Virus record (IMG/VR): IMGVR_UViG_2872703611_000002
Reading direction: 5' to 3' (one strand)
Length of the DNA: 53,140 nucleotides
Origin: a virus
Lineage: Duplodnaviria; Heunggongvirae; Uroviricota; Caudoviricetes
Of the stretch, positions 33,201-39,200 are shown in pieces. How positions within the stretch are numbered: the stretch's first letter is position 1; the number at the start of each line of letters is the position of its first letter. Position numbers: made by a program.

Positions 33201-36200
33201 TACTGAAACAGTGGGAGGCCCCATAGATGTTGCAATCATTTCTAAAGCTGATGGTTTTATCTGGGTTAAACGTAAGCACTATTTTGCAAAAGAACTGAAC
33301 CATCACTACTTTTCACGGTCATAGCAACAAATAGACAAGGGGAACACATGTCACTTAAGCAAGCCTATGAAAGAACTCAACCCAAAAGCATCAATGATTT
33401 CTTTCAGTTGAGTACTTCTGGAAAGAGTCGACGTACTGTAACAAGCCAATCTAACTTCTTTACTAAATTGAACAAAACATTACCTGCACAATCCTAAAAT
33501 GCTAAAAGCCACTACGGTGGCTTTTAGCTTTTATTTACATGCAATAACGCTCGTAATACCCTCTACAAAACCAATTGCAGTTTGTAATTCCTTTCTAATC
33601 GTGCCATCTGAACACCTTCTCTTTTTGGCAATAGTGCGTAATGAGATACCAATAACAAAGTGGGCTATGATGAGCTCATATTCCTCTGGTTTATACCTTC
33701 TCAACCGAGCCACACAACTGTCTATCATAATGCCTTCGTCATCATCACACTGAATCCGTGACTTTTTACCATGAGGTAAAAGCCCCTTGAAGCCCGCTGC
33801 TATCGGTTGCCAATCGACACCACTATTTTCTGCTGCAGCCCATGCCCCCCAGCGGTCTAAAACCTCATACATATCACGCCCCATTACTATCACCTCTAAT
33901 TTCGCAAATCTTCACGCCCAGCCGACCACCAGGAACGAGCTTACCGCGCACAATATTGATTTCATCAAACTGCTCGTCGTCTATGAGAAGCCCCGCATGC
34001 GTCAGTGCATCCAGCGGTGCTTTCAGGATATTGTCCAGGTCCCGACGGCGCTTATCCGGCGGCTCTGCAGTAATTTTTATTGCCAGCCTTCCGGACAGGT
34101 TTAATTTCAGCCGCTGCTGGCGGACAATAAGTGCCACATCCCGGCGATAACGCTCACCGGCTTTTGATACAAAATATGTGCTGCCACGACGACGCCAGTA
34201 GGTGTTCACCGTCGGCGGGTAAGGCAAAACAAACTCTATACGCATCAGTAACCTCTTTTACCCGAGCACGCCGGTTGCAAAGGCGCGATCAAGAAAACGA
34301 AAAATTAAATCAATCTGGGAACCATGCTTTTCTTCGAACGCCAGCGGATCCGCATGAAGCTCGTTGTGATGCTCCCGACACAGCGGTAGCGTGAAAATAT
34401 CGTGGGATTTTGTCCCTATTCCGCCCTGACCATGACCAATCAGGTGATGGGGATCGTCGGCTGGCTTATCACAACACGCACACGGCTGTGTCTTTACCCA
34501 GCGCGTATATTTCTCATTTACCCAACGGCGACGTTTAGGTCGCTTCATGAAAGATTCCGGAGACTCCGGATCAACAGCAATGCTGACCACCGTCTTTTCC
34601 TGTGGTGGATTTTGCTGGTGGGCGTGAGGCAGCGGCGCAAGATTTTTTGTGCGCTGCTTCAGTATGCTGGTGGCGGTCTGCTCTCCCGGTACGATGTCGC
34701 TTTCGCGGTACACCGAGCGAATTTTTTCCGCACGTAACCCCAGAGAACGACGTAATACTACCTCCGGTAGTGCGTCCGCCACCTGATTGCAGACAGCCCA
34801 CCAGGATAATTCAGCCAGCGATAATTCCCGCTCCTGTGTGCCATTCATTGCATGGCGCATGACATCAATCATCCATGCTGACAGGTTTTGGTGAGCAAGT
34901 TGCTCAAGTGATTCGGAGGACTGGTCACGCAACTGGTTGTCACAGTGCCAGCACAACACCATCGCGCCAGCACCGTAACGATGTATGACGGTTTCGCTGT
35001 GATGGTAATCACCATGAGGCCACTGGCAGGATTTAATATGGCGCAACAGCCAGTCAGACAATGCACCAGCACCACCAGCAGCACGAATCACCCGTGCGTT
35101 ACTGAAAAACGGCAGCAATGTTTTGTCTTCCACTAGCGGCTGGCGAACGGCAGGAACGACCCCGGACGGCAGATTACGCATGCTTTTCGGTTCCGGCTCC
35201 ACCAGTACCCGGGTATTGTGGAATACCGGCATGGATTCCCGGCCCGGCTTAACGATCACCAGCCCGAGTTCCGGTACCAGAACAGGTCGAAGTAATACCC
35301 GCACGTTACCTCCAGATGCGTTGCTGGAATGTGCGGGACGGACGCGGTGGGCGTTCGGAGTAAGGAAGCCTGACGGAGATTATCCAGTGACGATAATCGA
35401 GGCTGAGGGCTTTCTTAATCTCGTATCCGTGTCTGCGGTAGCACTGAATTAGCCACTCGGCCTGTTCTTCAGTGCATGGGGGATGCTGGAACCAGTCAGA
35501 TTTGAAAGTGCGGGAACGCCGCCCGTGCCTGCTGGCAAAGACGGCAGAATCATCAGAATTGTGTAATTTGGTATCGTGCGCCATCGGTTGTCTCTGCTGG
35601 CGCAGCAGGTGCCAGTTGTTCAGGCTGGCGTGCGAATTGTAAACCAGAATGCTAGGAAAAAACAAAACCCGCCGAAGCGGGTTAAGTGCGGGTGCGTTGA
35701 GGATGCCTGACACATCAGAGGTGGCGAGGGATTCTCCCCCGCCTGGTCTCTTACTCCTCAGGTTCGTAAGCTGTGAAGACAGCGACCTCCGTCTGGCCGG
35801 TTCGGATTCGTACCTCGCAGAGGTCTTTCCTCGTTACCAGTGCCGTCACTATGACGGTTAAACAGATGACGATCAGGGCGATTAACATCGCCTTTTGCTG
35901 CTTCATAGCCTGCTTCTCCTTGCCTTTCGGCACGTAAGAGGCTAACCTAGATTTGCCGTTCATAGATTGAGCCTCAGATTAATGTTAAGCGTCTTGCAGG
36001 ACGCGTAATGTTAACTGGGGCTTTTCTCTATCTGCCTTTGGTGTTCATGCCTGAGACAGATAGCCTCAAGCACCCGCAGCCATTCTACTTAACTCCCGTT
36101 ACCTCGCCAATATAAAATCAATCAGAAAGGCGATCCATAAGAACAACAGCAAGACAATAAATTGCCATTACAGCTGCAATAGCCAGCGCACATTTGAGAA

Positions 36201-39200
36201 CCAGCACGACAACCTCCTGTATTGGACGTACACCAGTCCTGATAAATATGAGGCTGTCTCATCATTGATGAGATACAACTATTGGGTATAGTTTCTGTGA
36301 TTTTGTTCTGTAGAAATGGAACACAACAACCAGTCACCACCAGTACTTCTTTAAATACGCCAAGTCCGACGCAAGCTAACCTTCTAGTCCGCTTTGAGCG
36401 AGAAGCGGAAGTATGAAACTTGTTCTCACCACCGATGAAGCATTACAAACAATGCAGTTAGTTTATCAACGGGCAGGATCAGGGCGTACTCTCAAGCGGT
36501 TTAAGATTGATAACCTCAGGTACATTCATCTTGCCACGTTTCATATAGCGTATTTGCGACAGAGTTCATGTGAAGAAACACCGACTACGAGGATGATATT
36601 CATGTTGTATTGTTCGGGAAATCACTTCTTCATATGGAACCCTCATCACACTTACAAAACCATTATTAACATAGCTTAAGTGTTAATCAAAATTGAGCCA
36701 TTCACATTACATTAGGTAAGGTATCTTACTAAAAATATTGTAATGTTTTGTTTTTAAAGATAAAGATTTCAGGTTGAAAACCAAAAATTTTTAGTTAAAA
36801 ATATTTATGGTGTATGTAAAAAATGATAAGGTAGTGATAAGACATAAGTTTGTAAAACACATGTTAAATTTCAATGCTGATGAAAAAGCTTAGCGTTAAT
36901 CAAAACAGGAGCAAGAAGATTGAAAGTTATTAGCTTAATCAATATGAAAGGTGGCGTTGGTAAGTCAACATTGGCTACCAATATTGCTAATCATCTTTCA
37001 GATAAACTTGGGCAAAAAATATTATTAATAGATATCGACCCACAATTTAACGCAACGCAATGTGTAATGGATACAAGCAAATATGTTGCACATATGAAAA
37101 GCGGAGGCGATAGCATATGTGATATTTTTTATAGTTCAAAAATTCGACTATCTACAATGACTGGTCCTTTAGTTAACACACCTAAAGAATTAGCCGATAT
37201 AACACCAATTCAATTAAATGATAATTTTCACATTGTTCCCGGAAGCCTTGGGCTATATAAAATTGAAATGAAACCAGGAGAAGGGATAGAAAACAAGCTT
37301 AGACGCTTTCTTAAAATCCATGAAAATGACTATGATTATGTCATAATTGATACCCCACCAACCCCATCAGTTTGGATGTCCAGCGCATTAATTGCATCTG
37401 ATTATTACCTCATTCCAGCCAAACCCGATCCTCTTTCGATCACTGGTATCGATCTATTAGATAGCATTATAAATGAGAAGAGAGAAAATTTCGATCTTAA
37501 GATTGAATGTGCGGGCATAGTTTTTAATATGGTTGAAGGTAATAGTAATTTATATGAGGAAAGTCTTCGTTACTTCAATAATCAAAAACGTTGGCGTAAT
37601 AAGATCTTTAAATCATATTTGAGCAAACGTACTGAGTTGGCAAGAAATCAAACAAGAGGCTTATTTATTAACAATTTAACGGATGAGGATATGAAGTTTT
37701 CGCTGTCTAAAATTACTGACGAACTTCTCTCTAGAGTAGGTGACTTATGACTGACAAAAAAAATAACTCAAAAGAAATTAAGCAACTGTTAAACTTTTTA
37801 GAGGAGTTTTCCTTTATTTCAAAAAAATTATCAAGAATCAACTTTATTGAATTACTTCAAGATAGTTATACTGATAATTTAGAAGTTAACGAAAGAAATT
37901 CAAAGTCCAAAAAAAATGATATTAAAGGTTTCCTTGTTGGGTATCTTCCGAGGATTTTATTAGACAAAGATCTCTTCCAAAAAAATAAAGATATAGATGA
38001 TTTTGCACGCATGTTAGGTATCGAAATCAGCAGGCCTGAAAAAAGATCTAGAGAGGAAATGATCGGCATAATCGTGTGTGACGTTCACGAGAAAAACTCA
38101 TCCGATTTAGGTAAGGCTTATAATATTATCAATTCAATGTCAAATAACCCTCTAGTTTTGAGTAGAATAAAAGAGAGGAAGAACCTTTCTAGCGCTCAAA
38201 ATGAGATATATGACTGGAATGAAGTTATAAAAGATATATTCAATAAGGACTAACAATGTCGAGAGAAGTAAACAGCGATTTCACTGAGTTAGTTACTTAT
38301 TTCTCTGAATATAAATTAAAAAATGTTTTCGAGAATATTAACTCAAGAGGGAAAATAAGCATGATACATAAGAGATATTATTCTTTTATGTGCCTTGTTT
38401 ACTGTTTGTATCATTTCTCCAAGGAGAAAATAGACGCCAACTCATTGGAGCGATTGCAAGAAGCTTCATCTGACCTTGGTACAGCTATGTTTATGGTTAT
38501 AAATGGTGCATACAAACCAGCAAATCTAATGATGCGAAGTTATATTGAAAATTCTTTAAAATCAATCGGTTGCTTACTAGATCCTTCAATACTTGAAGAA
38601 AAATCATTGTTTAAGGTAATTGAACAAACTGGGGAACATCCTGTCTTCAAAAAAAATCCTCTACTACATGAAACTTTAAAAGCTGAATACTCTTCGTTAT
38701 GCAGTCACGTACATACAGCTACTGTAAAAGAAATGGCTCACATAAAAGCTTTAAATGTTTTTCCCGAAATAGACTTGGTTAAAATAGATAATATTTCGAA
38801 GGTGATTGATAAGGTGGTTAAGACTATGATATCAACTATCATAAGAATTTTTCCTGATGTTTTCTTTTCCTTTGCACCTGAGTATCGAGAAAAAATCCTC
38901 CTTAGCTTAACCTCTGCACAACGAGCCTCACTTCATTCCTTAAGTGATTAACTAACAAGTATGACATAAAAACTATCCTATTGTGATAGTTTTTATGTTC
39001 ATTAAGATGACTATATCAGGAATTATTGCCGAATTTTAATTTTCATATTGATTTTACTATCTCTCACCAACTCTTGTAAGTATCCTTCCGCCACAAGCGG
39101 ACCATGTGCATTTAAATATCTGACCTAACGTGCCGTAACGCCGCAATGTCCGCTTCTGGCACAAAGCAGACGCCCACTCTCACGCGAATGCTTTGCCCTT

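Follow-up and report, generated by a model that had tools for sequence, protein, structure and literature searches.

The closest described comparisons for the gene analysed here come from two groups of very small membrane proteins of Escherichia coli. Type I toxins of like size, such as TisB (29 aa), ZorO (29 aa), ShoB (26 aa) and IbsC (19 aa), consist of a single hydrophobic helix with a polar or charged end, and their loci are defined by an antitoxin small RNA (sRNA) and by tightly repressed translation. AcrZ, MgrB, KdpF and CydX are non-toxic inner-membrane small proteins with known partner complexes, encoded by chromosomal core genes. Here we examine ORF29, an open reading frame (ORF) of 29 amino acids (aa) on the minus strand of a 53,140-nt stretch of viral DNA (IMG/VR record IMGVR_UViG_2872703611_000002; the whole stretch is referred to as the window), located immediately upstream of a hok/sok cassette. 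Our analysis indicates that ORF29 is likely to be a genuine protein-coding gene, encoding a prophage membrane microprotein that is not under RNA control.

ORF29 resembles TisB, ZorO, ShoB and IbsC in size and in its helix, but neither a conserved antitoxin sRNA nor a repressed leader was found, and its relatives are translated in growing cells. With AcrZ, MgrB, KdpF and CydX, several of which are among the translated controls in published profiling data, it shares the architecture of a single-helix microprotein, an ordinary Shine-Dalgarno (SD) sequence and, as judged from its relatives, translation during normal growth; unlike them, it is prophage-borne and confined to Escherichia/Shigella. 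The Hok/Gef proteins (PF01848) likewise carry a small N-terminal transmembrane helix with a Lys before it and a charged residue after it, and are encoded on the same strand as prophage accessory genes. ORF29 differs from Hok in having 29 rather than about 50 residues and in lacking the periplasmic Cys-containing domain, a mok-like overlapping frame, a Sok-like antisense RNA and a fold-back mRNA. A relationship to Hok was rejected, as no Pfam match was obtained at E <= 10 and hhalign returned a probability of 1.3% against the Hok protein of the window.

Around the ORF29 start, the minus strand of the window reads acAGGAGGttgtcGTGctg (longer stretch, ccaatacAGGAGGttgtcGTGctggttctc), confirming the AGGAGG-N5-GTG arrangement reported in the initial annotation of this DNA (coordinates in Table 1). 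Translation of this strand yields MLVLKCALAIAAVMAIYCLAVVLMDRLSD, a peptide with a grand average of hydropathy (GRAVY) of 1.81 and a best 19-aa Kyte-Doolittle window of 2.70. It comprises a single hydrophobic helix, and the chain ends six residues past it. The short polar tail is kept in the ORF29 family (..YCL..LMDRLSD), with YCL and LMDRL(S/G)(D/N) as conserved motifs, and the N-terminal side of the helix carries Lys in the copies assigned below to class 1 and acidic residues in those of class 2. The stop codon precedes the hok -35 element by 8 nt and the hok ATG by 211 nt, in line with the distance of about 210 bp given initially, and the seven RefSeq genomes with 100% identity across the stretch carry no annotation for ORF29. 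According to a chance model based on 100 random windows matched to size and dinucleotide make-up, with a perfect SD required, about 1.9 ORFs of 20–60 aa with an SD and a start are expected per random 53-kb window, compared with three observed, and a strongly hydrophobic version (GRAVY > 1.5) occurred in none of the 100 random sequences. The decisive case for ORF29 as a gene is comparative, however, rather than one of chance statistics.

Homologous loci were collected by two scans of IMG/VR. A pattern composed of the hok promoter and the 5' end, blind to whatever lies upstream, together with five earlier loci, provided 125 loci. Upstream of the hok promoter, 42 of these carry ORF29 (class 1), 25 a 34-aa ORF, MSDDISLAMEGALAVIAVVGVYCLVVFLMDRLGN (class 2), and 23 only another hydrophobic ORF of 27 aa, MTWPEAFTTVGIAMAVALVVYSICRWG (class 3), while the other 35 have neither small ORF. 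The second scan used the peptide alone, with no reference to hok, and retrieved 394 stretches encoding a relative, from which 84 loci could be analysed.

Conservation of the reading frame, the lack of which had been named initially as part of a refutation, was evident throughout class 1: all 126 ORF29 copies (126/126), which represent 19 distinct nucleotide variants, are intact, equal in length and open with the same GTG, and every one carries an SD (AGGAGG, AGGAGA or GGGAGG) 5 nt before the start. Within-class variation was evaluated on pairwise counts with a binomial test against an expected synonymous share of 25–26% (26% for class 1). Class 1 has 25 variant sites, 14 of them third-position and 13 synonymous (12 non-synonymous; P = 0.005); class 2 has 16, with 11 third-position and 10 synonymous (P = 0.002); and class 3 has 46, with 26 third-position and 25 synonymous (P = 2e-5). 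When classes 1 and 2 were pooled, the synonymous excess reached P = 4e-5.

The comparison between classes extends over a larger distance. Class 1 and class 2 peptides align without gaps over 28 residues, 15 of which are identical (54%; BLASTP 5e-10), at a nucleotide identity of 58–67%, with differences distributed 8/4/12 over the codon positions. The ratio of non-synonymous to synonymous substitution rates (dN/dS) between them was 0.18–0.34 in the ORF29 frame, versus 0.34–0.58 and 0.9–1.6 in the other two frames. One member, P0113, is intermediate in sequence and bridges both classes. Insertions and deletions in the diverged members are all whole codons (+1 in P0136, +2 in P0139 and +3 in P0116), with no frameshift. 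Moreover, the leader upstream of the SD is unrelated among class 1 types A (the type found in the window), B and C and class 2; all of these lineages retain the SD, the start and the frame. Taken together, these sequence comparisons show that the ORF29 frame, start and SD are conserved and that the peptide is under purifying selection.

A second frame, a 72-aa Cys-rich ORF, overlaps ORF29 and had looked spurious from the outset, a judgement that our data corroborate. In the part of this frame that does not overlap ORF29, which lies upstream of it, polymorphisms are spread 9/10/9 over its codon positions. Among loci, its start varies and its length ranges from 23 to 111 aa, neither being conserved, and class 2 does not keep the frame. 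When the frames were compared between classes 1 and 2, the best coding support fell on that of ORF29, and the weakest frame showed a dN/dS of about 1 or higher. The 72-aa ORF was consequently rejected as a true gene for want of a coding signal.

Ribosome profiling had also been proposed as a check, and published footprints were found for two relatives. One is the type B allele of BL21(DE3) (NC_012971.2, 1591437-1591524, minus strand; VLVLKCTLAIVAVMAIYCLVIVLMDHLSD), listed in Table S4 of Fesenko et al. 2024 (PMC11188072). This allele has 13 retapamulin initiation-site counts (Ribo-RET) and 38 footprint reads over 90% of the ORF, and it belongs to the Entero67K set of intergenic small ORFs under purifying selection, as cluster Escherichia_98807, with a dN/dS of 0.46 (PMC11188072). 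Gene and locus are the same as in the window: the protein is 83% identical to the window peptide, from which it differs by five conservative residue changes, and the sequence upstream of the SD is different. In that publication (PMC11188072) it is a table entry only, without name, context or function.

The other relative is the class 2 homologue of E. coli O157:H7 Sakai, reported as the novel gene XECs145 in S2 Table of Hücker et al. 2017 (PMC5597208). In LB medium at 37 °C, XECs145 showed 79 reads per kilobase per million mapped reads (RPKM) in the transcriptome and 346 in the translatome, with a ribosome coverage value (RCV) of 4.35 and a coverage of 0.99; the corresponding values were 121.3, 150.1, 1.14 and 0.84 in the brain heart infusion (BHI) control and 73.3, 1.1, 0.01 and 0.37 under BHI stress (PMC5597208). 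In the current Sakai RefSeq annotation, XECs145 is ECs_5710, a hypothetical protein of 34 aa located in prophage Sp6, where it precedes the mok-like ECs_1520 by about 190 nt. ECs_5710 resembles ORF29 in its 15 identical residues over the 28 aligned, in the YCL and LMDRL motifs, in its strong SD and in its position on the same strand upstream of mok/hok. It differs from ORF29 in that its N-terminus is longer and acidic (MSDDISLAMEG versus MLVLKC), its stop is separated from the hok promoter by a 22-bp palindrome and a distinct -35 region, and a further 27-aa membrane ORF lies ahead of it in tandem. In view of the footprints on both relatives, ORF29 is probably translated. The initial suggestion of a real gene for a small hydrophobic peptide is thus supported by a frame that is kept, by the signs of purifying selection and by published footprints on two relatives.

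Several observations weigh against this interpretation. The footprints all come from relatives, the BL21 type B allele and the Sakai homologue, and not from the window allele or its strain. The initiation signal in BL21 is weak, at 13 counts; in Sakai, several near-identical prophage copies may account for the same reads, or the reads may derive from spontaneously induced cells; and XECs145, as scored, is extended at its N-terminus into the end of the small ORF before it. The count of 126 class 1 copies is inflated because some contigs were fetched in both scans, although the number of variants is not. Types A and B within class 1 differ by five non-synonymous and two synonymous changes, so that the constraint on exact residues must be loose, though hydrophobicity is retained. 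No consensus sigma-70 promoter reached the scan threshold on the ORF29 strand within the leader, where the best candidate found by eye matches at only 7 of 12 positions. Scans of the three small peptides against Pfam, NCBIfam and PHROGs returned sub-threshold noise only. Finally, linkage to hok cannot by itself prove a shared function, because the spacing is only 8 bp.

This linkage is asymmetric: hok often occurs without the peptide, and the peptide almost never occurs without hok. The hok leader lies directly downstream in 83 of the 84 peptide-anchored loci, the sole exception being a rearranged Shigella flexneri locus with an ORF29 relative and no hok. The diverged members P0136 and P0139, recovered by profile search, are also located immediately upstream of mok/hok, and one of them has an ORF6N gene, the other a divergent higBA pair, as its upstream neighbour. 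Upstream of the module, at least 32 different sequences were found, and homology to the window ends within positions 36400-36412 in 104 of 128 related loci. As a separate observation, 36400..36412 is a very sharp recombination boundary, adjoining the hairpin CCGCTTCTCGCTCAAAGCGG.

The 299-bp block spanning 36409-36111 is present at a coverage of at least 80% in 1684 of 5426 complete E. coli genomes, and it is unannotated in every E. coli match among those listed; it also occurs in phages Tritos, Evi, mEp460 and HannyBb. As far as our searches show, the family appears to be restricted to lambdoid prophages of Escherichia/Shigella. Two word-index searches returned relatives in Escherichia only, a profile search over 1.84 billion representatives gave 28 matches, all in the same family, and a scan of GTDB species gave Escherichia, Shigella and three contigs of metagenome-assembled genomes (MAGs). 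The latter (L126, L129 and L130) carry ORF29 at 96–100% identity on contigs of 2.6–3.3 kb in MAGs named Collinsella, 'Candidatus Scatousia' and Haemophilus, and are most likely mis-binned E. coli prophage DNA.

The initial annotation had also suggested that ORF29 could be a second type I toxin-like peptide or a part of hok regulation, and neither idea was supported by the comparison. As the toxin of a second type I pair, ORF29 would encode a membrane-depolarising peptide repressed by a cis-encoded antisense RNA, which we regard as unlikely. Its size, single helix and charged tail do resemble TisB, ZorO, ShoB and the N-terminal half of Hok, it occupies a prophage accessory location adjoining a known type I system, and plus-strand promoter-like sites lie antisense to both ORF29 and its leader (Table 1). 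However, an antisense RNA was looked for by consensus scans only, and these revealed no conserved promoter or terminator. At the site antisense to ORF29, the -10 hexamer is TAAAAT in about half of the class 1 copies and TGAAAT, without the key A2, in the rest, and the site is absent from class 2; the site antisense to the leader lies in sequence that types B and C and class 2 lack. The terminator scan detected no plus-strand terminator in 35600-37000, the fold of the 313-nt leader plus ORF29 was not significant (z = -1.39), and sequence comparison disclosed no conserved anti-SD, the SD being strong and exposed. In addition, relatives are translated in ordinary growth, as indicated by the RCV in Sakai and the translation initiation site peak in BL21, and there is no homology to Hok_Gef. 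ORF29 therefore has the small hydrophobic membrane peptide of a type I toxin but, by these scans and comparisons, neither its conserved antisense antitoxin nor its repressed translation. Regarding hok regulation, ORF29 falls outside the hok mRNA, because its stop precedes the hok promoter and the mRNA 5' end, and the family is missing from 58 of the 125 loci with the same hok promoter. A natural deletion was also identified: in 14 IMG/VR loci (including L010 and L007), all among those with neither small ORF, a gene for QueH (epoxyqueuosine reductase) is joined inside ORF29, leaving its last seven codons (ATGGATCACCTTTCTGATTGA), which shows that hok does not need ORF29.

A different proposal is that the ORF29 peptide is a membrane partner of Hok, serving as an enhancer, immunity factor or co-toxin, and that ORF29, at times with a second tiny membrane ORF ahead of it, forms one functional cassette with hok/sok for, e.g., abortive infection or lysis timing. 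The constant position directly upstream of hok in 83 of 84 peptide-anchored loci, as well as in P0136 and P0139, despite at least 32 upstream neighbours, would fit such a partnership, as would the second 27-aa membrane ORF (MTWPEAF...) found in tandem in other prophages, also with a synonymous excess, and the fact that all these membrane peptides are encoded on one strand. The 8-bp spacing explains the linkage, however, and of the 125 hok loci 35 contain neither small ORF, whereas 23 carry the 27-aa ORF alone; the 14 QueH-junction loci keep only the last seven codons, and the Shigella locus keeps ORF29 without hok. We therefore consider a partnership with Hok quite improbable. Little more than a speculation, and just as doubtful, is an extended membrane-peptide cassette of lambdoid prophages in which ORF29/ECs_5710 and, in many phages, the tandem 27-aa ORF might tune, potentiate or immunise against Hok, or act as a second RNA-independent membrane effector in abortive infection or lysis timing; if true, phage hok/sok would be a multi-component system and not the classical two-gene locus. 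Least probable of all, in our view, is that ORF29 is not a functional protein gene and that the block is kept as DNA or RNA, e.g. because it assists the hok promoter from upstream or marks a recombination boundary, with incidental translation. ORF29 does abut the hok -35 element, it has no known domain or dedicated promoter, and conservation within class 1 alone is weak evidence because its members are at least 92% identical in nucleotides. Yet classes 1 and 2 retain the frame, the stop position and 54% of the residues at only 58–67% nucleotide identity, third-position changes dominate, and all indels are whole codons. The SD and start are found in every lineage despite unrelated sequence just upstream, and hok promoters at other loci work with entirely different sequences upstream.

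The interpretation that we favour is that ORF29 would act as an accessory membrane peptide of the prophage, neither an RNA-controlled toxin nor a cis-regulator of hok. We infer that the peptide inserts into the inner membrane, where it would sit as one helix with a short polar tail. It would be made from rightward phage transcripts or by read-through from the variable upstream cargo, because no promoter is conserved together with ORF29.

Database entries for 29-aa proteins that are 83–100% identical to ORF29 exist in GenBank and RefSeq (REL606/BL21 included), labelled 'hypothetical protein' or 'membrane protein', and one RefSeq MULTISPECIES entry of class 1 has been seen on 650 contigs. When the literature was searched with the peptide string and the locus names, the gene turned up in supplementary tables only, and no paper was found to discuss it. 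ORF29 has therefore been catalogued before, without a name, a family model or a described context. What is new here is the homology between the 29-aa and 34-aa peptides, the near-obligate position next to hok, the second micro-ORF in tandem, and the negative outcome of the toxin and regulator tests. The block occurs in about a third of complete E. coli genomes, including BL21, REL606 and the reference strains of enterohaemorrhagic E. coli (EHEC), and standard annotation skips ORF29 in this prophage; the present analysis would add one selected, translated prophage membrane microprotein to the list of small proteins. The recurrent neighbourhood, consisting of one or more tiny membrane ORFs followed by hok/sok at the edge of a cargo/defence hot spot, could guide the discovery of function. 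The understanding of hok/sok itself is unchanged unless a functional link is demonstrated.

The features of the locus are collected in Table 1.

Table 1. Features at and around ORF29, in window coordinates (-, minus strand; +, plus strand).
Feature	Position	Strand	Remarks
Leader of ORF29, type A module, ~200 bp	36412..36208	-	Conserved; sharp mosaic left boundary at 36400-36412
72-aa Cys-rich ORF	36340..36122	-	Other frame, overlaps ORF29; judged not a gene
Promoter-like TTGATG-16-TATAGT	36265..36292	+	Antisense to ORF29 leader; lineage-specific sequence, not in types B, C or class 2
Shine-Dalgarno AGGAGG	36218..36213	-	Read directly; 5-nt spacer before GTG
ORF29, 29 aa (stop included)	36207..36118	-	GTG 36207..36205; TGA 36120..36118
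Promoter-like TTAACT-18-TAAAAT	36089..36118	+	Weak candidate from promoter scan, antisense to ORF29
hok promoter TTGGCG-17-TAGAAT	36110..36082	-	Sigma-70-like, from promoter scan; fits 5' end of hok-leader model at 36075
hok mRNA leader with Sok target region	36075..35901	-	Rfam RF01794; 110 bits versus gathering 59, E = 9e-26, full-length model
mok, 70 aa	35963..35751	-	Overlaps hok
hok, 51 aa	35906..35751	-	51/51 identical to K-12 HokD; ATG at 35906
Intrinsic terminator closing hok mRNA	35683..35666	-	7-bp stem, 5 GC pairs, then T run

The window is a Qin/Rac-like lambdoid prophage. The annotation of a 100%-identical genome of enterotoxigenic E. coli (ETEC) starts with a cI-like repressor, cro, ydaT, a replication protein and DUF977, followed by cargo (IS3, IS100, a BCCT transporter, DUF2254 and a divergent three-gene ParA operon) and then by about 1 kb without annotation, hokD, a hypothetical gene, DUF968, rusA and Q. 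ORF29 lies within that unannotated kilobase, on the strand shared with hok, DUF968, rusA and Q, as the last small gene ahead of the hok/sok cassette, where the nin-like region starts. In K-12, relB-relE lies directly upstream of hokD with a gap of 71 nt. No tblastn match to RelB or RelE was obtained anywhere in the 53-kb window, which agrees with the absence of relBE reported initially and rules out the relBE-hokD layout of K-12 Qin for this locus. Homology between K-12 and the window extends no more than 14 nt upstream of the hok ATG, and K-12 has therefore lost the hok leader too.

The possibility that ORF29 is the remnant of a larger gene was rejected. In BL21(DE3) (NC_012971.2; locus L004, 2204..2563), a 'DUF977 family protein' of 119 aa, compared with 140, runs with its 3' end into the block upstream of ORF29; this overlap is a deletion fusion specific to B strains, and ATCC 11303 keeps the undeleted layout, in which the same block is preceded by the full DUF977, a methyltransferase fragment and QueH. 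A search of Rfam at E <= 1 over 35500-37000 gave nothing besides the sok/hok-leader model, and hence no match in the ORF29 leader. Inside ORF29 itself, a terminator-like hairpin was noticed at 36164..36183 on the minus strand (GCTATTGCAGCTGTAATGGC, then AATTTATTGT); with three GC and two G-U pairs, this hairpin is weak and has probably arisen as a side effect of the coding sequence.

Related loci contain further small elements. Members of the 27-aa hydrophobic ORF family have a strong SD and often overlap the end of a DUF551 gene. The 27-aa ORF is located upstream of an ORF29-family gene in L026, L038, L133, L135, L136, L092, L027 and L044, and stands alone before the hok promoter in L025, L034, L059 and L064; two copies contain early stop codons. 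A relationship between ORF29 and the 27-aa ORF of class 3 was rejected, with an hhalign probability of 1.2%. At EHEC-type loci (L026, L038 and other class 2 loci), a perfect 22-bp palindrome, CGATATGGGAATTCCCATATCG, separates the upstream gene from the hok -35 region, and it also occurs at loci without small ORFs (e.g. L021, L041 and L114). As neither side carries a T run, this palindrome may serve to bind a protein and not to terminate transcription.

In the prophage, non-phage cargo lies between the replication genes and the nin-like region (39234..42578, minus strand, and beyond), encoding a DUF2254 membrane protein and a BCCT-family transporter, together with IS3 and IS100, whose identity was taken from the annotation of the identical genome. 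An unannotated plus-strand ORF of 88 aa (36413..36679) starts exactly at the mosaic joint 36409-36412. It is followed by a low-GC three-gene operon (36920..38951, plus strand) encoding a ParA-family ATPase and two hypothetical proteins, which is inserted in the cargo hot spot of the prophage. The only PADLOC match was a weak one (E = 4e-5) of this ParA to the candidate PDC-M28B; the region of the 88-aa ORF and ParA could be a defence or partition-like module.

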